DNA of 38,533 nucleotides from a virus. The stretch is taken from UHGV virus genome UHGV-0139758; one strand, 5' to 3'. Below the pieces are notes generated by a model. That model had not been told where the DNA came from. It made no database searches and was given only the letters and a program-made list of their open reading frames with translations. The position numbers were made by a program, and so were the translations under genes. Below are positions 3,070 through 28,545 of this stretch, piece after piece (position 1 is the first letter of the stretch; every line of letters begins with the position of its first letter).

Positions 3070-3333
3070 ATGATTAATGTTGCTAAATTAAAAGGCCTAA
3101 TTGTTGAAAGAGGAACGACCCAACAAGCTGTAGCTGATTCTATTGGTATAGACAGAAGTACTTTCTACAGAAAAATGAAAAAAGGTGGAGATTTTTCTAT
3201 AGAAGAGGCAAAAGGCATTAAAGAACAGATTCCGTTATCAGATGCAGAAGCGATAGAAATTTTTTTTGGTAAAGAAGTCGCATTTACGCTACAAAGAAAA
3301 GGTTTAGGGGTGGGAACTGATGACCACGTTTGA
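3070..3333 (+). CDS. cro: Cro-like HTH (XRE family) transcriptional regulator
   Basis: Start at the ATG at 3070 (MINVAKLKGL...), with an AGAGAGAGG RBS upstream. The HTH is QQAVADSIGIDRSTFYRKMK. It is transcribed divergently from cI. Confidence 0.7.
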   Translation: MINVAKLKGLIVERGTTQQAVADSIGIDRSTFYRKMKKGGDFSIEEAKGIKEQIPLSDAEAIEIFFGKEVAFTLQRKGLGVGTDDHV

Positions 3334-3616
3334 AGAAGCGCTAAAACCATTGTTTGATCAGTGGTTAGAGGAAGCATTGCCAGAAATAGGGTGTAGGTTT
3401 AGACAGGAGATTGAATTGGAGCTAGATGCTAAAAACCAACAAACATTATTCAATCAAACGGAAATGGCGAAACGGCAAGGTGTTTCTGTAGAAACATTTA
3501 GAAAATGGCGGAAAGCTGGCTTGCAAGCAGAACCTAATCCTACTGGTAAATTGTTATTTGATTTAAATAAAGTTAATAACTGGCGAAAAGATAATGCTGC
3601 TAAGAAAGAACTTTAA
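3320..3616 (+). CDS. HTH DNA-binding protein; excisionase or regulator candidate
   Basis: 98 aa. The C-terminal half carries a MerR/Xis-like HTH: TEMAKRQGVSVETFRKWRKAGL. Confidence 0.45.
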   Translation: MTTFEEALKPLFDQWLEEALPEIGCRFRQEIELELDAKNQQTLFNQTEMAKRQGVSVETFRKWRKAGLQAEPNPTGKLLFDLNKVNNWRKDNAAKKEL

Positions 3617-4572: not shown

Positions 4573-5283
4573 ATGACAAATTTAGTAATTATGAAAAACC
4601 AGCAAGCAGTAACAAGTAGTTTACAAGTTGCAGAAACTTTCGGAAAAGAACACAAAGTTGTTCTAAAAGCCATTGATGAATTAAAAGAGGGGGTGGCACA
4701 AAATTATGCCGACCTATTTTACGAAGATACCTACATTCATCCACAAAACAAACAATCTTATCGCCAAGTTATTATGAATCGCGACGGCTTCACTTTGTTA
4801 GCAATGGGGTTCACTGGTCAAAAAGCTTTGCAATTTAAATTGAAATATATTGAAGCTTTTAATCAAATGGAAAAAGAAATTCAACAGCCTAAACTTCCAA
4901 CCTCGCAAAGACAATTGGCGATGCTTGCTTTATCAGCAAATGAAGAAACAAATGAGCGTGTAGATGTAATTGAAAAAGAAGTAGCCGACTTAAAAGACAA
5001 TCAAAAAATCGGTGCAGATGATTATGGCTACTTATCACGTCGAGTTCATCAACGAGTAGCAGAAGTTGCAAGAGGATTTGGAAAAATCACAAAGGAACAG
5101 CGTGGCAAGCTTTACAAAGATATTAATTCAGGTATTAAGCAAATCACAGGTGTGGGTACCCGATCACAATTAAGAGAAAAACATTATCCAATGGTAATTG
5201 AGTATATCAATGACTGGGAGCCGTCTACAGCCACAAAAACAGTTGTAAGACAAATGAGTTTTGACTTAAATGACATAGCGTAG
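4573..5283 (+). CDS. Phage regulatory protein Rha family (antirepressor-like)
   Basis: The N-terminus MTNLVIMKNQQAVTSSLQVAETFGKEHKVVLKAIDEL matches the Rha/ORF6N signature from memory. The C-terminal region is coiled-coil-like. Confidence 0.7.
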   Translation: MTNLVIMKNQQAVTSSLQVAETFGKEHKVVLKAIDELKEGVAQNYADLFYEDTYIHPQNKQSYRQVIMNRDGFTLLAMGFTGQKALQFKLKYIEAFNQMEKEIQQPKLPTSQRQLAMLALSANEETNERVDVIEKEVADLKDNQKIGADDYGYLSRRVHQRVAEVARGFGKITKEQRGKLYKDINSGIKQITGVGTRSQLREKHYPMVIEYINDWEPSTATKTVVRQMSFDLNDIA

Positions 5284-5293
5284 GGAGAATGTT

Positions 5294-5479
5294 ATGGCTT
5301 ATACAACTGAACAAGAAAGCTGGATACTCAACCAAATCAAAAAAGAGCGTAAACAGCTACAAGATGATAGAGCAGCGCTTAGACAATCAGAACAACTGAC
5401 CGAAGGAAAAGCATATCAAATTGAAAAAGAACTCGAATTTTTAAGATATTTAGAAATTCAAAATAGAATCCATGTGTAG
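5294..5479 (+). CDS. Small hypothetical protein (61 aa)
   Basis: ATG with a GGGAGA RBS. Charged, coiled-coil-like sequence. Confidence 0.4.
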   Translation: MAYTTEQESWILNQIKKERKQLQDDRAALRQSEQLTEGKAYQIEKELEFLRYLEIQNRIHV

Positions 5480-5489
5480 GAGGTTAATC

Positions 5490-5696
5490 ATGAAAGCAAT
5501 ACGTGAAGCACGATTGATAGGGATGTTTTTATTGATGATAGCGCTAGGTACATTGTTGAAAAGTCACTTTTCAATGTCAGTGTTAGCAACATTAAGCGTT
5601 CCATTCTTTATCCATTGGTTCTTCAATTGGGATGAAGCGAAGTATCAATATTTTGAAAAAAAGGGGTTAAGAAATGACAAGAAAAGACAAAGATGA
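5490..5696 (+). CDS. Small membrane protein (68 aa)
   Basis: ATG at 5490 with a TAGGAGG RBS. Two hydrophobic segments: IGMFLLMIALGTLL and VLATLSVPFFIHWFF. Confidence 0.45.
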   Translation: MKAIREARLIGMFLLMIALGTLLKSHFSMSVLATLSVPFFIHWFFNWDEAKYQYFEKKGLRNDKKRQR

Positions 5697-5856
5697 ACTA
5701 TTGAGAGAACAGAAAAAAACAAACGAATTGCTCCAAACTATAGTTAGTAATCAAGGGGATTTAGATCAAAAAAGAGAAGTAGCAAGAACTACTCCTCAAG
5801 ATAGCGATGGAAATATTTATAGCGTAGATGAAATTTGTATCCCAAACCTTAATTAA
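5674..5856 (+). CDS. Small hypothetical protein (60 aa) with a REVAxTTPQ motif
   Basis: AAGGGG RBS. DQKREVARTTPQDSD is paralogous to the 4088..4304 product. The DNA at 5768-5805 closely matches 4263-4300. Confidence 0.5.
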   Translation: MTRKDKDELLREQKKTNELLQTIVSNQGDLDQKREVARTTPQDSDGNIYSVDEICIPNLN

Positions 5857-6133
5857 AAATATTGTTATTAATGTATCCCCATTGTTTTTCTGTCAACCAG
5901 CCTTGTTTGTTATTGACTATTTCAACAATAAAAAATTTATCACCTTTGTCAATATAAGGCTTTAATTTGTCAATCATTTGGTTGGGTGTCAAATCAGATT
6001 TAATTAGATACGATGATTTCCAATAACAACACCAAGCACCTGTTGAAAGTTCTTCTTTGATAGTTGTTATAACCTCGTCGTATCTTTGGCCCGGACTATT
6101 CAAATCATAAGTTATCATATAAGGTTTGCGCAT
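5849..6133 (-). CDS. Hypothetical reverse-strand moron (94 aa); function unknown
   Basis: Compact ORF antisense to the early operon, followed by copy 3 of the conserved element. The hydrophobic-residue spacing (ITYDL...Y..V...I...W...SYLIKSD...IDKGDKFFIVEI) loosely resembles small ferredoxin-fold nucleases of the Cas2/VapD type. That resemblance is weak and unverified. Confidence 0.45.
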   Translation of the reverse strand: MRKPYMITYDLNSPGQRYDEVITTIKEELSTGAWCCYWKSSYLIKSDLTPNQMIDKLKPYIDKGDKFFIVEIVNNKQGWLTEKQWGYINNNIFN

Positions 6134-6152
6134 CTGTAGGTACCTCCTTCTT

Positions 6153-6213
6153 AATTATTTCAGCAGACCACTTGCTGATAAATAATATTATACCAGAGAA
6201 AGGAATAAAAAGA
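6153..6213 (+). promoter_or_regulatory. Conserved element, copy 3
   Basis: TTAATTATTTCAGCAGACCACTTGCTGATAAATAATATTATACCAGAGAAAGGAATAAAAAGA, about 85% identical to copy 1, ending in an RBS before the ATG at 6214. Confidence 0.5.
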
Positions 6214-6339
6214 ATGACCAGAATAGAAAAACTAGAGCAAACGAAAAAACTTGCTGATTTATGGTACCAGCAACAAAAAAATCAAATATACATTATTCAA
6301 CAAAAAGAGAGAAGGAAATTTAGATGTTTAAAGCAGTAG
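6214..6339 (+). CDS. Very small ORF (41 aa) downstream of conserved element copy 3
   Basis: The ATG sits at the same position relative to the element as the genes after copies 1 and 2. Translation: MTRIEKLEQTKKLADLWYQQQKNQIYIIQQKERRKFRCLKQ. Confidence 0.3.
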   Translation: MTRIEKLEQTKKLADLWYQQQKNQIYIIQQKERRKFRCLKQ

Positions 6340-6479
6340 GAAAAGATAGTTTGAAAATTTACGTGGTTGAGGATACGAAAGCCCTGGTATTTCAAAAGCT
6401 TAAAGAAAAATATCCAGGCACTGCGATAAATAAGGCAGTATTTCCAGAAGCGTTATTTATCCAAGAAACAAAAAAGTGA
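6324..6479 (+). CDS. Small ORF (51 aa)
   Basis: ATG with a GAAGGAAA RBS. Translation: MFKAVGKDSLKIYVVEDTKALVFQKLKEKYPGTAINKAVFPEALFIQETKK. Confidence 0.35.
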   Translation: MFKAVGKDSLKIYVVEDTKALVFQKLKEKYPGTAINKAVFPEALFIQETKK

Positions 6480-6535
6480 CTTCCGCCGGCAAGCAAAAAG
6501 TCACAAACAAAATTAATTGATAGGAGAATTATAGC

Positions 6536-6772
6536 ATGAGAGTGGAAGTGGATTCAATGCAAAGAATTGTCTTAATTGATAATCATTCACCTTATGGATC
6601 ACTGATTTTTGAAAAGGATGCTATTAATAATCATGTTGCTGTTTACCAAGATAGCGAAGATGAAGAAGTTAGAACAGTATTCGAGAGTTTAGATGAAAGT
6701 GCTTATTTTAATCAACTTGAATTAATCAAAGGACTTCAAAAAGTTATTTCATTACTGAAAGAAGGGGAATAA
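6536..6772 (+). CDS. Hypothetical protein (78 aa)
   Basis: Acidic protein with a TAGGAGAA RBS, immediately upstream of the ERF gene. Confidence 0.5.
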   Translation: MRVEVDSMQRIVLIDNHSPYGSLIFEKDAINNHVAVYQDSEDEEVRTVFESLDESAYFNQLELIKGLQKVISLLKEGE

Positions 6773-7450: not shown

Positions 7451-8373
7451 TGACAAACGAATTAACAACAGAATTGCAGTTTAATGTTGATTTTAAAGCT
7501 AGTAAAATCACTATCCAAAATGAAGCACAGTTGTCTGAGATGGTTGAGAGCGCAGTTAAGCACTATTCAACAATGATTTTCACAGATGAAAACATTCCTG
7601 AAGCTAAAAAAGCAAGAGCAGACTTAAATAAAGTTGTAACGTTGCTAGATGATCAACGTAAAGAAGTTAAAAATCAATATGATAAGCCGTTAAAAGATTT
7701 TGAGGAAAAAATAAAAAAATATACTGAAAAAATAAGTGAAGTTAGTTCAGAAATTAACGAAAGCATCAAATCATACGAAGAAGCAGAGAAGCAGAAACGA
7801 AGCAAAAAGCTTCAAAAAGTGATTGCTGAAATGTCTGAAAACTACAATGTATCCATTGACGAAATTGAAATTCCTAGTTCGTGGACTAATAAAACAGCTT
7901 TCACAGTTAAAGGTGAACCAAATAAGAAAACTATTGAGGAAATAGCGGCATCGATGGTAGCAGTTGCATCTGAAAAAGAACGTATAAAAAACGATAAGCT
8001 CATTGTTGAAAATTATGCTAAGGCAGTTGGCCTTGACTCGTTTTCTTGGGTCGCATTAATTGATAAAGGGTCTACTGCACCAGAGCTGATGAAAGAAATT
8101 GATTCCGCCGTTGCTTTAAAAAAAGAACAAGAAGAACGTGAAAGAGCAAAAAAAGAACACGACGAAGCCATTGCTGCTTTGAAAACTGAAACAATCAACA
8201 ATAAAACAGTTGACACTGAAACAGGCGAAATCATCACAGAAGAAGTACCAAAAACCAGCAGAAAACAACAAGAGAAAACAGTTACGTTAAGACTAACAGC
8301 AGAACATCAAAAGTTAGTTGCTCTAAACAATTTTATTATTAATAACGGGATTCAAGTGGAAGTGATTGAATGA
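7450..8373 (+). CDS. DUF1351-family phage protein (ERF partner)
   Basis: Start at the ATG at 7450, which overlaps the erf stop. Lys/Glu-rich coiled-coil protein, typical of the gene that follows erf. Confidence 0.55.
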   Translation: MTNELTTELQFNVDFKASKITIQNEAQLSEMVESAVKHYSTMIFTDENIPEAKKARADLNKVVTLLDDQRKEVKNQYDKPLKDFEEKIKKYTEKISEVSSEINESIKSYEEAEKQKRSKKLQKVIAEMSENYNVSIDEIEIPSSWTNKTAFTVKGEPNKKTIEEIAASMVAVASEKERIKNDKLIVENYAKAVGLDSFSWVALIDKGSTAPELMKEIDSAVALKKEQEERERAKKEHDEAIAALKTETINNKTVDTETGEIITEEVPKTSRKQQEKTVTLRLTAEHQKLVALNNFIINNGIQVEVIE

Positions 8374-24076: not shown

Positions 24077-24943
24077 ATGTCAATCAAATATTACACTAAA
24101 CAATATGCAGGTATTTTGCCAGAACTGTTTGCTAAAAAAGCAGTATTTTTACGTGCTTTCGGAGGTACTTTACAGACAAAAGACGGAGTCTCTCAAAACG
24201 ATACATTTCTAGATTTGAAAGTTACAGATACGGACGTTGTTATTCAAGCATATTCGACAGATGAAAATGTAGGATTTGGAACAGGGACAGGCAGCTCAAG
24301 CCGTTTTGGTAAACGTAAAGAAGTTAAATCAGTCAATAAACAAGTTAAATATGAAGCGCCACTTTCAATTCATGAAGGTGTCGATCAGTTTACTGTAAAT
24401 GATATTCCTGATCAAGTTGTAGCAGAGCGCTTAGCTTTGCATGCTGTTGCCTGGGCGCAACATGTGGATAACTTGTTAGGCAAAGCATTATCTGACAATG
24501 CAAGTGAAGAACTAACCACTACATTAGATGAAGCTGGTATTACAAAACTATTTTCTAATGCTCATAAGAAATTTGTTAATAACAATGTTTCTCAAAACGT
24601 TGCATGGGTTGCCTATGTTAATTCAGACGTTTACGACTTATTAATTGATTCAAAACTTGCAACAACTTCTAAAAATTCATCCGCTAATGTTGATGAACAA
24701 ACTTTATACAAATTTAAAGGGTTTGTTTTAGAAGAGTTACCAGATGAAAAATTTCAACCAAATGAGGTAGCAATTTTTTCAGCTGATAACGTAGGTGTAG
24801 CTGGCGTAGGTATTCAAGTAGCACGTGCTATGGATTCAGAAGATTTCGCAGGCACAGCGTTACAAGCGGCAGGTAAGTATGGCAAATATATCCCTGAAAA
24901 AAATGCTAAAGCGATTATTAAAGGTGTTGCCCCAAAAGTGTAG
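24077..24943 (+). CDS. Major capsid protein (0-frame product); a -1 frameshift variant would extend to 25011
   Basis: 288 aa, in the standard position after the scaffold gene. The slippery heptamer C_CCA_AAA lies at 24931-24937, two codons before the stop. Confidence 0.8.
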   Translation: MSIKYYTKQYAGILPELFAKKAVFLRAFGGTLQTKDGVSQNDTFLDLKVTDTDVVIQAYSTDENVGFGTGTGSSSRFGKRKEVKSVNKQVKYEAPLSIHEGVDQFTVNDIPDQVVAERLALHAVAWAQHVDNLLGKALSDNASEELTTTLDEAGITKLFSNAHKKFVNNNVSQNVAWVAYVNSDVYDLLIDSKLATTSKNSSANVDEQTLYKFKGFVLEELPDEKFQPNEVAIFSADNVGVAGVGIQVARAMDSEDFAGTALQAAGKYGKYIPEKNAKAIIKGVAPKV

Positions 24944-24982
24944 CCCCGAAAGTTGGTAAACTAACGCCGACAACAAGCGGGG
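24931..24982 (+). other. Putative -1 programmed ribosomal frameshift cassette at the capsid 3' end
   Basis: The heptamer C CCA AAA is in the correct zero-frame register (gcC|CCA|AAA). A 6-nt spacer separates it from the stem CCCCG (24944-48) ... CGGGG (24978-82). The -1 frame stays open for 24 codons (SVAPKVGKLTPTTSGVVIEMEEGA) to the TAG at 25009-11. Confidence 0.55.
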
Positions 24983-24999
24983 TTGTTATTGAAATGGAA

Positions 25000-25027
25000 G
25001 AAGGAGCTTAGTCTCCTTCTTTTTTTA
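25000..25027 (+). terminator. Strong intrinsic terminator after the capsid gene
   Basis: GAAGGAG-cttagt-CTCCTTC perfect 7-bp stem followed by T8. Confidence 0.8.
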
Positions 25028-26109: not shown

Positions 26110-26507
26110 TGGATTTTCTTGATTGTTTAAATGAAAAGATAAATCAGATTCCTAATTTGCCGTTAAATATTCGGAAAGGATACCTTTCAGCGCTAGAAAG
26201 CTTAGTGATTTACCCATTACCGGGCGGTAAGGTAGAAACCGAATATTATGACGGAATCAAAGACGAGTTGTTAAACTATGAAATTGCCATGAAATCAAAA
26301 GACGGTGCTAAGATAGAGCGGACATTATGGCTACTATCGGATGTTTTAGAAAACATTGAAGAACTACCAAGTAAAGATAGCTCTTTCGAGTATAACAATT
26401 TAACAATAACGAACAGACCTTTCATCAATGAAGCAGATGAACAAGGTTGGTTCGTTTTTTTATTAGATTTTCAAGCAAAATTAACCACATTCAAGGGGGA
26501 AAAATAA
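26109..26507 (+). CDS. Tail completion / neck protein
   Basis: 132 aa, overlapping the major tail protein start (taATG). Confidence 0.5.
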   Translation: MDFLDCLNEKINQIPNLPLNIRKGYLSALESLVIYPLPGGKVETEYYDGIKDELLNYEIAMKSKDGAKIERTLWLLSDVLENIEELPSKDSSFEYNNLTITNRPFINEADEQGWFVFLLDFQAKLTTFKGEK

Positions 26508-26986
26508 TGTTATTAAAAATGGATATCCAAATGTTTGCACGTGAAAAAAATGCGAAACGTGAACACTATATCGCTGAATATACACCAGGGAAAGAAACAG
26601 CTCCTACAGAAGATACGGAATGGTTACGACTAGCTAAATATATCTCTACCATTGGTGACGATTCAGACGAAGAAACAGACGACACAGGTTTTTATGACGG
26701 TGATGGTACACCTGAAACAACGGTGGTATCAGTATCTGGTACGTATACACCAGAAGGCATGTACGATGCAGAAGACCCAGCACAACAATTAATTGCAAGT
26801 AAAAAATACAAATTAGGTGACGGCCGTAAAATCTGGCATAAAGTCGTACAAACCAATGGTGATGTTTATATTGGACGTGCAACAGTTACAGGCATTAAGG
26901 CAGGTTCTGGCGATGCGACAGCATACGAAGAATTCGGCTGCTCAATTAAATTTGACACGTTGCCAGAAATCAGCCCAAAAGCGTAG
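26507..26986 (+). CDS. Major tail protein (0-frame product); a -1 frameshift variant would extend to 27054
   Basis: 159 aa. ATG at 26507 with a GGGGGA RBS. The heptamer C_CCA_AAA lies at 26974-26980, two codons before the stop, mirroring the capsid gene. Confidence 0.7.
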   Translation: MLLKMDIQMFAREKNAKREHYIAEYTPGKETAPTEDTEWLRLAKYISTIGDDSDEETDDTGFYDGDGTPETTVVSVSGTYTPEGMYDAEDPAQQLIASKKYKLGDGRKIWHKVVQTNGDVYIGRATVTGIKAGSGDATAYEEFGCSIKFDTLPEISPKA

Positions 26987-27025
26987 CCCCAGTAGTCGAC
27001 AAAATAACGCCGACTACAACTGGGG
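26974..27025 (+). other. Putative -1 programmed ribosomal frameshift cassette at the major tail protein 3' end
   Basis: agC|CCA|AAA heptamer, a 6-nt spacer, then a perfect stem CCCCAG (26987-92) / CTGGGG (27020-25). The -1 frame encodes SVAPVVDKITPTTTGVIIDMKEGI to the TAA at 27052-54. The cassette is about 75% identical at the nucleotide level to the capsid cassette. Confidence 0.55.
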
Positions 27026-27055
27026 TCATCATAGATATGAAAGAAGGAATCTAAC

Positions 27056-27508
27056 ATGGCGAGAGAATATATCGTTTATAAAGGTGAGGAAGTCGTTGTT
27101 CCGGCTAGTCCAAGCCCTTTAGAAATTATAGGCATTGAGCCCAATACGGATGTTCCAGCAGGAACGTACCAAGTAGGGTTTGTAGACGGTGGAGAGAAAG
27201 TAGATGTACCGGCATTTAAGACGTTACCGATTGCTGTAACTGGCTTAGAGTTTTCTCCTAAAACATCAACAGCAGATGCGGGTACTGCAGGTAGCCGACA
27301 AATCACAGCAACTGTCTTGCCTGAAAATGCAACCAACAAAAAAGCAACCTATGAGATTACGCCTGAAACAGAAGGTCTTGCTGTCTCTGAAACAGGAAAT
27401 ATTACTTGGACAGAAGCGGTACCGGCTGGTGTTTATACCACAACAGGAACAACAGAGGATGGTAAAAAAACAGCTCAACACACCTTAACATTGAATAATC
27501 AATCATAA
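27056..27508 (+). CDS. Ig-like (Big_2-type) domain protein
   Basis: ITATVLPENATNKKATYEITPETEGLAVSETGNITWTEAVPAGVYTTTG matches the bacterial Ig-like group 2 signature. It is a separate ORF with a GAAGGA RBS, 1 nt after the frameshift-extension stop. Confidence 0.65.
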   Translation: MAREYIVYKGEEVVVPASPSPLEIIGIEPNTDVPAGTYQVGFVDGGEKVDVPAFKTLPIAVTGLEFSPKTSTADAGTAGSRQITATVLPENATNKKATYEITPETEGLAVSETGNITWTEAVPAGVYTTTGTTEDGKKTAQHTLTLNNQS

Positions 27509-27562: not shown

Positions 27563-27970
27563 ATGAAAGCATTAGAAATTAACGTAAAACGCACAGGTTT
27601 CCCAGTCATTTTAGCAGGACATGAATTTTTCTTTGATAGTTCACCAGAACATTTAATCGAGGTACAAAAAAACTATGAAGCGTTTGAAAAAGAAGTAGAT
27701 TCGATTGAAGGACCCAATGAAGACGATGCAGATAGCTTGGACTTAGAGCCGTACAAAGAGTTGTTAGCAAAAGGGTATGACGTCATGTTAGGCGAAGGGA
27801 CATTCGATACGTTGTATGCGGATATTCCAGACATCAACGCATGGCTAAACGCTTTCTTTGATTTATACAACGGGATTGCCGATCAATTGGACGAATTCAA
27901 AGAGGAACAAACTAAAAATTCCCAACGCTTAAAACAGAAGTACTTGAAAAAAGTTAGTAAGAAAGGGTGA
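27563..27970 (+). CDS. Tail assembly chaperone (gpG-like)
   Basis: 135 aa, acidic. It sits between the major tail protein and the tape measure gene, where the G-type chaperone normally lies. Confidence 0.6.
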   Translation: MKALEINVKRTGFPVILAGHEFFFDSSPEHLIEVQKNYEAFEKEVDSIEGPNEDDADSLDLEPYKELLAKGYDVMLGEGTFDTLYADIPDINAWLNAFFDLYNGIADQLDEFKEEQTKNSQRLKQKYLKKVSKKG

Positions 27971-27975
27971 GCGCA

Positions 27976-28545
27976 ATGCGGTTAAACGATCCGCTGCCCT
28001 CTTTTTTTGAGTTTGAAGAGAAAGAGTATCCTCTAAATCTTGCTTTTGATCGTGTGTTGGATGTTTTCGACGTGCTGTCTGATGACGGGATGAATCTTCC
28101 AGACAAGGTAGAGACTTGTATAAAGATTTTAGTTGGTGATGTAGGACTAGATATTGTATCTCAATTTGAGATGTTCAGAGAACTATACGATACCTATCTC
28201 GTCTTTGGTAAAAAATCAGAAGTGGTAACCGATGAATTAGGAAATGTTATGCCGATGAAACCAGTCAGTAAAGATATGGACATTGTATTAGATGCAAAAT
28301 ACATTTATGCCTCTTTTCGACAAATAGGTATCAATTTATTTGAGGAACAGGGCCGTTTGTCTTGGGAAGAATTTCAAGTATTGCTAGAATCGTTGCCAGA
28401 TGACACACCTATTCAAAAAATTAAAAGTATCCGTAACTGGAAACCGCAAAAAGGAGAAAGTACTGAACACAAGGAACAAATGAGAGAACTTCAAAGGCGT
28501 TATGCATTACCAAATTACGTAAGGGAGGAGGAAGAAGATGGCTGA
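27976..28545 (+). CDS. Tail assembly chaperone (gpT-like); in the -1 frame relative to the gpG-like ORF
   Basis: This ORF opens at 27961, in the -1 frame relative to the upstream gene. ATG at 27976 with an AAGGG RBS. A G/GT-type fusion is possible, but no canonical slippery heptamer lies in the 9-nt overlap. Confidence 0.55.
   Translation: MRLNDPLPSFFEFEEKEYPLNLAFDRVLDVFDVLSDDGMNLPDKVETCIKILVGDVGLDIVSQFEMFRELYDTYLVFGKKSEVVTDELGNVMPMKPVSKDMDIVLDAKYIYASFRQIGINLFEEQGRLSWEEFQVLLESLPDDTPIQKIKSIRNWKPQKGESTEHKEQMRELQRRYALPNYVREEEEDG

Follow-up and report, generated by a model that had tools for sequence, protein, structure and literature searches.

Immunoglobulin (Ig)-like domains are covalently part of structural proteins in several phages, such as the C-domain of lambda gpV, T5 pb6, the phi29 capsid and SPP1 gp17.1*, and weak adhesion to carbohydrate surfaces has been proposed for them. 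Fraser et al., in 2006, are said to have described Ig-like domains on phage structural proteins, often via frameshifting. Recoding at the 3′ ends of both the capsid and the tail genes is established in Lactobacillus phage A2 and in the Listeria phages A118, A500 and PSA (PMC5009743), and a -1 extension of 21 amino acids (aa) on the capsid gene has already been proposed for ORF10 of phiEf11 (Stevens et al. 2016, PMC5221750). Here we analyze the UHGV virus genome UHGV-0139758, a stretch of 38,533 nucleotides (nt) referred to below as the window. Its major capsid and major tail (tube) protein genes both end in a -1 frameshift cassette coding for a short peptide tag, and a free adaptor-Ig protein is encoded directly downstream of the tail tag. 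Frameshifting at these gene ends is of an already known kind. What appears to be previously undescribed is the proposed split-domain docking. Judging from sequence comparisons and structural models, we consider it probable that the frameshift-delivered tag docks the adaptor-Ig protein in trans on capsid and tail via a split fibronectin type III (FN3) domain.

The window DNA is that of an Enterococcus faecalis-type siphophage or prophage. Its open reading frame (ORF) list contains the 0-frame capsid gene at 24077-24943 (288 aa; phrog_840 major head protein, E 1.5e-135) and the 0-frame tail gene at 26447-26986 with its TAG stop at 26984-26986 (phrog_820 major tail protein, E 1.5e-60), both on the + strand, like all cassette and adaptor features described below. 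Each gene carries the slippery heptamer C_CCA_AAA, which fits the X_XXY_YYZ pattern of -1 frameshifting in 0-frame register, at 24931-24937 in the capsid gene and at 26974-26980 in the tail gene. One codon separates the heptamer from the 0-frame stop in both cases, the tail gene ending in AGC CCA AAA GCG TAG. The capsid heptamer is shared with close relatives, other relatives having A_AAA_AAA instead, and the tail heptamer is kept in relatives L003-L016. In A2, the same heptamer with a downstream structure was reportedly found by Garcia in 2004 and Rodriguez in 2005.

In the -1 frame, 24 codons are open in each gene. They encode the capsid tag SVAPKVGKLTPTTSGVVIEMEEGA (24937-25011, stop TAG at 25009-25011) and the tail tag SVAPVVDKITPTTTGVIIDMKEGI (26980-27054, stop TAA at 27052-27054), both with a coding signature in that frame. 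A sequence-only reading of this DNA had recognized the in-register heptamer, the downstream stem and the open -1 frame in both genes, and all three are indeed present in the sequence. It had also called the two tags homologous, which holds, and about 60% identical; they agree at 16 of 24 positions (67%). The six synonymous differences that it listed between them are all correct. The tags share the 17-mer CCCAAAAGNGTAGCCCC, which occurs exactly twice in the window compared with 0 expected occurrences (100 shuffles). The bare string CCCAAAA is found 11 times in the window when both strands are counted, so the heptamer by itself is not significant; it is the combination of heptamer, register, stem-loop and open homologous frame that is. 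GC-rich stems, CCCCAG/CTGGGG in the tail gene and CCCCG/CGGGG in the capsid gene, begin 6 nt past the heptamer, and the two-tier hairpins to which RNAfold extends them start 5-6 nt downstream, which places a predicted RNA structure at the 5-9 nt spacing of this class of frameshift sites. Compared with shuffled sequences, RNAfold gives z = -3.0 for the tail hairpin (-22 kcal/mol) and z = -2.7 for the capsid hairpin.

To follow the tag beyond the window, relatives were gathered in three independent ways: 45 loci by the tail protein, 59 by the capsid protein, and 80 viral plus 16 genomic loci by the downstream ORF. The tag has the consensus V-x-[ST]-P-x-V-x-x-V-[TN]-P-T-T-D-G-A-x-I-x-L-x-stop. 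With a length of 21-24 aa, it terminates capsid genes from no fewer than five unrelated families (288, 294/312, 310, 381 and 395 aa) and tail-tube genes from no fewer than four (150, 159, 179 and 197 aa), and it always adjoins the 0-frame stop of the capsid or tail gene. These families come from Enterococcus, Oceanobacillus, Virgibacillus, Siminovitchia, Lentibacillus and others, and overall the tag is seen in phages of Enterococcus, Bacillaceae and Staphylococcus. A regular expression for the tag gave 155 matches on the forward strand, all of them at most 8 residues from a stop, compared with 0 matches that close to a stop on the reverse strand (968 kb). Among 33 non-redundant 57-nt cores read in the tag frame, the mean pairwise difference is 0.32 at first, 0.30 at second and 0.61 at third codon positions, and the ratio of nonsynonymous to synonymous variation (pN/pS) is 0.48 in the tag frame versus 1.13 and 1.37 in the other two frames. 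The -1 frame is thus open and evolves as coding sequence, and the shift site and the extension are conserved in related genomes.

These comparisons bear out the purifying selection on the -1 frame that the sequence-only reading had deduced, and in homologous phages the shift site, the stem pairing and synonymous-biased variation of the tag frame are all conserved, which was the comparative check it had suggested. Its two broader proposals gain from the evidence of about 200 related loci: that both genes end in a programmed -1 frameshift, and that some of the capsid and tail subunits carry a common C-terminal tag for decoration or interaction. On the comparative evidence, the tag is very likely translated. 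The comparative sequence data also give strong support to a -1 shift that would yield a tagged subset of capsid and tail-tube subunits. In phiEf11 virions, two bands of different size both derive from the capsid gene (PMC5221750).

The peptide is reached by more than one route. A shift-prone site lies 0-1 codon before the 0-frame stop in all 66 distinct modules, most often G_GGG_GAG (22 modules), the C_CCA_AAA type (about 13) or G_GGA_AAG (11), with G_GAA_AAG, G_GGG_AAG, A_ACA_AAG, A_AAA_AAA and G_GGA_AAC as rarer forms. Staphylococcus phage 3A (NC_007053; locus L204) uses a +1 route: TTA_CCC_AGC_TAA ends its capsid and tail genes alike (2715-2816 and 4876-5000), and the +1-frame tags YPAKPQKVNVTAKAKSAVISAE and YPANPQNVEVAVNSKSATVSAE, each ending at a stop, are unannotated in the record. 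These CCC_AGC_TAA sites resemble the CCC_UGA +1 sites of Listeria phages. On two contigs of Atopostipes metagenome-assembled genomes (L195 and L196, about 8305-8373) the tail tag TEEPEVLNIEPTVDGADVGLE, up to its stop, follows the TGA stop of the gene immediately and without a change of frame, which implies stop-codon readthrough instead of frameshifting, or an assembly error. Finally, the tag is fused in frame 0 to the tail genes of phiEf11 (L002, 3765-3842) and L137 (4392-4985) through different 1-nt insertions, the junctions reading AGAAAAAG and CACGGGAAAG, respectively, compared with CCGGGAAAG in EFC-1, and frame-0 fusions are also seen in genes 154 and 155 of phage 812. In phiEf11 and L137, every tail-tube subunit would therefore carry the tag. 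Two further apparent in-frame fusions, in L012 and L013, were dropped, as the indels lie inside the gene body and the 3′ arrangement is normal.

Set against the described systems, the window shares the event itself with A2: both have a -1 shift near the 3′ end of the head and tail genes of a Firmicutes siphophage, with short and long forms (PMC5221750, PMC5009743). However, the A2 extension is long and carries an Ig-like domain (PMC5009743), whereas that of the window has 24 residues and makes up an incomplete domain, the remainder being a separate gene. The Listeria phages A118, A500 and PSA likewise recode their capsid and tail genes at the 3′ ends, at -1 and +1 (CCC_UGA) sites (PMC5009743). 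This precedent had been taken as purely +1 in the sequence-only reading, which is not correct: according to the review by Atkins et al. (PMC5009743), the shift in A118 and A500 is -1 for the coat gene and +1 for the tail gene. A118 (L205) also has the gene order of the window, namely tsh, an Ig-like ORF, chaperones including Gp15 and the tape measure. Unlike in the window, its shifted frames are whole domains, with a HeH/LEM ORF overlapped by cps and an Ig-like ORF overlapped by tsh, and it has neither a short tag nor a free adaptor protein. phiEf11 contains the same module as the window, with A_AAA_AAA, a stem-loop and the 21-aa -1 extension on the capsid gene; the phiEf11 paper presents it as an isolated, speculative capsid event and mentions neither the homologous tail tag (which is in frame 0 there) nor how widely the tag occurs, nor any connection with the Ig-like ORF16 downstream (PMC5221750).

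The sequence-only reading had missed what is likely the partner of the tag, namely the ORF at 27056-27508, which starts 1 nt past the tail tag as a separate frame of 150 aa; according to the domain anatomy and modeling described below, tag and ORF would rebuild one FN3 domain. Residues 60-150 and the stop codon (27233-27508) form a Big_2 Ig-like display domain (Pfam Big_2, E 0.0015; supported by Foldseek), with profile matches to the lambda gpV C-domain, T5 pb6 and the phi29 capsid Ig domain. Residues 1-59 (27056-27232) form an FN3-like N-terminal adaptor that spans strands C to G and lacks A and B, as assigned from the family alignment, the Pfam fn3 matches of family members and AlphaFold2 (AF2). 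These approximately 59 N-terminal residues are common to a large family of free proteins, with an identical start point in all 25 aligned. While the adaptor is constant, the C-terminal cargo varies: one or two Big_2 domains, a HeH-like domain (L200-L202) or a non-Ig domain (L015). The adaptor is present in 437 sequenced phage records, 423 of which are Staphylococcus phages (siphophages and Kayvirus myophages), and no Listeria phage was among the matches of this search.

Several observations concern the cargo and the naming of this protein. A HeH/SAP-like helix-rich motif (e.g. TVEEIKAWLTAHEIDYTGKTLKSDLLALV) is the adaptor cargo in L200-L202 (5983-6330), which come from three Enterococcus species. 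The same kind of motif is a direct -1 extension of the L099 and L100 capsid genes, and it is also found in A118 ORF7 (3083-3241), which overlaps cps. It seems to serve as a display module in place of the Ig domain. L015 and L016 (about 440-1100 and 3465-3536) have variant tags, KRLTPSIDGVDVTATSATFQLS on the capsid and KRLTPSIDGVVVGDREVTVHVH on the tail protein, each ending at a stop and each following CCCAAAA; they accompany an adaptor ORF beginning MSQVFVIYKGNEK with a non-Ig C-terminal domain. The adaptor-Ig protein itself (EFC-1 gp45, phiEf11 ORF16, phage 3A ORF023, phrog_341) is widely labelled 'major tail protein'. This looks like a propagated mis-annotation, because the real tube protein is the upstream gene.

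Four members of the adaptor family (P0080, P0089, P0022 and P0079) pass the Pfam fn3 gathering score with 25.3-27.2 bits. In these, protein residue 3-11 is aligned to fn3 profile position 30-43, and the match continues through position 82-83 of 84. Because the fn3 matches start at position ~30, the adaptor family appears to correspond to an FN3 domain without the first ~29 profile positions, i.e. strands A-B, a segment to be compared with the tag length of 21-24 residues. The acceptor fold is thus incomplete alone, with a common start at strand C and fn3 covered from position ~30. Neither the missing segment nor a tag-ORF fusion occurs among the 120 of 135 database homologs listed. AF2 modeling of the tag joined to the ORF resulted in a mean predicted local distance difference test score (pLDDT) of 95.1, with 90-97 for the tag and strands at its residues 6-11 and 15-20; the input had a deep alignment for the ORF part only, the tag columns consisting of just the two window tags. 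In Foldseek, the model can be aligned over its full length with proteins made of two tandem Ig/FN3 domains. The joined pieces are predicted, as a covalent fusion, to form a seven-strand beta-sandwich. A BFVD fold search added nothing decisive.

Among 104 loci picked by capsid or tail homology alone, tag and adaptor are both present in 21 and both absent in 80. Only 3 are discordant: one is a truncated contig, and in the other two an adaptor ORF accompanies a variant tag that is found on both genes. The adaptor gene is invariably the next one 3′ of one of the two tagged genes, past the tail gene in most Enterococcus loci and past the capsid gene in Bacillaceae and in L161-L164. The second tagged gene has no adjacent ORF, and its tag can therefore meet the adaptor only in trans. 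In phage 812 (MW546072; L203), positions 5331-6740 hold three consecutive genes, each with its own ribosome-binding site: 812_154 is a protein with the tag in frame (PSAPKNVQVTPKEDGADVSAE, then stop), 812_155 is adaptor plus Big_2 plus a second tag (APADVTVEPGENSADITV, then stop) and 812_156 is a 75-aa adaptor without cargo. It would be difficult to account for such a chain if tag and adaptor did not pair. Genes 154-156 are located outside the main structural module, beside DNA polymerase and repair genes, and the phage 812 neck and baseplate literature contains nothing on them.

We propose the following mechanism. Some ribosomes translating the capsid and tail-tube genes would slip by -1 at C_CCA_AAA, stimulated by the stem-loop 5-6 nt downstream plus the nearby 0-frame stop, and would thereby add the 24-residue peptide. 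The peptide would fold as a beta-hairpin equivalent to strands A and B of an FN3 domain, while strands C to G would come from the N-terminal ~59 residues of the separately translated 27056-27508 protein. Tag and truncated adaptor would then join in trans by fold complementation, as suggested by the make-up of the domains, by the structure prediction and by the co-occurrence of the two. A single free Ig-like protein could thereby be plugged on tag-bearing capsid and tail-tube subunits alike, with the frameshift efficiency setting the occupancy, and the displayed domain might provide weak adhesion to carbohydrate surfaces, as presumed from other phage Ig-like domains. Overall, the sequence and modeling data lend moderate support to the central step, in which the tag would give strands A-B to the adaptor in trans and so dock one Ig-like protein on both lattices.

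In chaperone-usher pilins, SpyTag/SpyCatcher and split GFP, an incomplete fold is completed by one or more strands from another polypeptide. The arrangement proposed here shares with these donor-strand systems an incomplete beta-sandwich completed by another polypeptide and a specific, stable junction, but differs in that two FN3 strands (A and B) would be donated and that the donor would be made by ribosomal recoding. There is no sign of a covalent isopeptide bond between tag and adaptor. A covalent SpyTag-like link was considered and dropped, as the sequences show no obvious conserved Lys/Asp pair and the tail protein of phiEf11, which is fully tagged, runs at 28-30 kDa and thus not at the size of an adduct. 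The proposal also has to be distinguished from the class of Fraser et al. In common with that class, an Ig-like (Big_2) domain is proposed to be exposed on the capsid and tail of the window phage. The class is covalent, with a complete Ig-like/FN3 domain in the extension, as found in L014, L057, L058 and A118, whereas the window extension has 24 aa with two predicted strands and is proposed to act as a non-covalent split FN3 connector, with one gene serving two lattices. In the searchable, incomplete literature, we found no description of a split FN3 connector, of the tail-gene tag, of its homology to the capsid tag or of its distribution.

A number of results speak against this mechanism. The Pfam scan of the window ORF, and of the tag concatenated with the ORF, gave no fn3 match, and a tag-plus-adaptor profile searched against PDB sequences reached FN3 structures at E 0.3-1 only, with alignments outside the tag. 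As the AF2 model is of a covalent fusion, it shows the compatibility of the pieces with one fold and not their association in trans; run from the single sequence, AF2 of tag plus ORF was uninformative (pLDDT 35). Part of the conservation of the tag (Ala-Pro, Gly, Val and Pro-Thr) falls on the arms of the RNA stem, and peptide and RNA constraints are for this reason entangled. The capsid extension peptide of phiEf11 was not detected by mass spectrometry (PMC5221750). Finally, there is no genome-specific co-adaptation of the tags, whose similarity is 0.63 within a genome versus 0.58-0.61 between genomes.

The last point, seen as a lack of genome-specific co-variation between tag and adaptor, fits the view that the tags are made by frameshifting but are functional alone, for example as an inter-subunit arm that stabilizes or regulates the lattices, with the Ig protein attached otherwise or not at all. 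The frameshift and selection evidence is silent on the binding partner of the tag, and the fully tagged tail protein of phiEf11 runs anomalously on sodium dodecyl sulfate polyacrylamide gels, at 28-30 kDa versus 21.5 kDa predicted (PMC5221750). However, a tag acting alone leaves unexplained its near-perfect co-occurrence and strict adjacency with the adaptor, the start of the adaptor at fn3 position ~30, the confidence with which AF2 puts the tag in the place of the two missing strands and the tag/adaptor chain of phage 812. We therefore regard this view as unlikely.

The -1 frames could also be decaying relics of a full FN3/Ig extension once appended by frameshifting, or of a duplicated 3′ module, with the downstream ORF as a surviving piece. 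In close relatives, this site is indeed used to add whole domains. Where the capsid has about 80% identity to that of the window (L057/L058 and others), the -1 frame at the same position encodes a linker and a complete Big_2 domain. In the tail protein of L014 (76% identical), C_CCA_AAA appends a 118-aa FN3-like extension that is apparently an intact FN3, with a weak match to Pfam fn3 (E 0.079), and A118 has its HeH and Ig-like extensions. Decay is nevertheless very unlikely, given that the pN/pS of 0.48 is maintained across genera, that shift-prone sites of many different sequences are kept, that the tag has been re-created in +1 or in-frame versions and that it is kept on the gene without an adjacent ORF.

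Alternatively, the conserved element might be essentially RNA, a 3′ stem-loop that acts in the stability or processing of the mRNAs for the two most abundant virion proteins, or in the coupling of translation to the next gene, with the peptide being incidental. The capsid copy folds into a two-tier stem-loop at 24941-24985 (RNAfold centroid structure), with an outer stem GCCCCG/CGGGGU and an inner stem GUUGGU/GCCGAC, and the tail copy into an equally two-tiered one at 26986-27026, GCCCCAGUAGUCG...CGACU...ACUGGGGU. Over 31 modules, 80.6% of cells are paired compared with 31-58% when the partners are slid. One pair, formed by the third positions of a Val and a Pro codon, covaries, being UA in 15 modules, CG in 5, UG in 4, GU in 3, GC in 1 and unpaired in 3. 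Judged from this alignment, the hairpin is also under selection and covaries at synonymous sites. Together with its stability, the overlap of conserved residues with the stem arms, the terminator-like hairpin directly after the capsid copy and the tail tag stop only 1 nt ahead of the ATG of the next gene, this is what an RNA element might look like. An RNA element does not account for the three-base periodicity, for a low pN/pS in the tag frame only, codons 3′ of the hairpin included, for in-register shift sites throughout or for a peptide conserved despite different nucleotides and recoding modes (the Staphylococcus +1 and the in-frame versions), so an incidental peptide is highly improbable. 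Last, a second recoding at the end of the tail tag (e.g. +1 at ATC_TAA_C_ATG), joining tag and ORF in cis into a tail protein-FN3-Big_2 fusion, could draw on the 1-nt gap of the window and on EFC-1-type phages that have the ORF in the tag frame, but it is hardly credible, because the ORF lies in relative frame 0, +1 and +2 in 3, 5 and 6 of 14 distinct tag/adaptor junctions with a Shine-Dalgarno sequence in between, which argues for independent initiation, because the second tagged gene is never followed by an adjacent ORF and because no fused protein is among the listed homologs.

Beyond the window, split-FN3 docking may represent a general connector in Firmicutes phages, including those of Enterococcus and Bacillaceae, hundreds of Staphylococcus siphophages and Kayvirus. 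In its general form, a split FN3 domain, with the A-B tag of ~21 aa delivered by -1 or +1 frameshifting, readthrough or fusion, would capture in trans interchangeable display domains (Big_2, HeH-like or others), and the recoding efficiency would set their copy number. We hold this generalization to be somewhat better than an even chance. If true, it would explain the purpose of very short recoded extensions, a question that phiEf11 left open, and would constitute an assembly principle new to phage decoration, in which lattice subunit and decoration protein each contribute one half of a domain. That one peptide is reached by -1 and +1 shifts, possible readthrough and fusion makes this an unusually clean natural case of selection on the product and not on the recoding mechanism. 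A small natural tag/adaptor pair that tolerates varied cargo would also be attractive to phage engineers as a non-covalent 'plug-and-display' handle. As to annotation, the tags are missing from it, and the adaptor-Ig protein goes under 'major tail protein' in many of the 437 records, including therapeutic Kayviruses and Staphylococcus phages converting for Panton-Valentine leukocidin (PVL).

Some further features of the region were noted. A terminator-like hairpin of 10 bp with a T-run (GAAGAAGGAG...CTCCTTCTTT; RNAfold) spans 24997-25026, over the last capsid-tag codons and the stop. It was not flagged by a consensus terminator scan; lying between the genes for the capsid and for the head-tail adaptor, it has the look of an intrinsic terminator or of an attenuator. 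The tail copy is without this insert, and the equivalent GGAATCTAA(C/G)ATG leads straight into the next gene. At the DNA level, matches to sequenced phages (EFC-1, IME197 and phiEf11; 90-93% identity) cover the Ig-like ORF only; among proteins, those nearest to it are E. faecalis entries named 'phage tail protein'. The tail gene is mechanically listed as starting at TTG 26447, and the family profile matches from residue 29 on. This concerns the segment 26447-26530: because the family match begins only at that residue, the true start codon is probably downstream of this TTG. Between the Ig-like gene and the tape-measure gene, the window has an overlapping pair of ORFs, 27563-27970 and 27967-28545. 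The latter (Phage_Gp15) is in the -1 frame relative to the former, as in tail-chaperone G/GT pairs. In 27961-27970, the sole stretch with an open -1 frame between these chaperone-like ORFs, no canonical heptamer was seen, and a Shine-Dalgarno sequence with an ATG at 27976 suggests that 27967-28545 is initiated independently.

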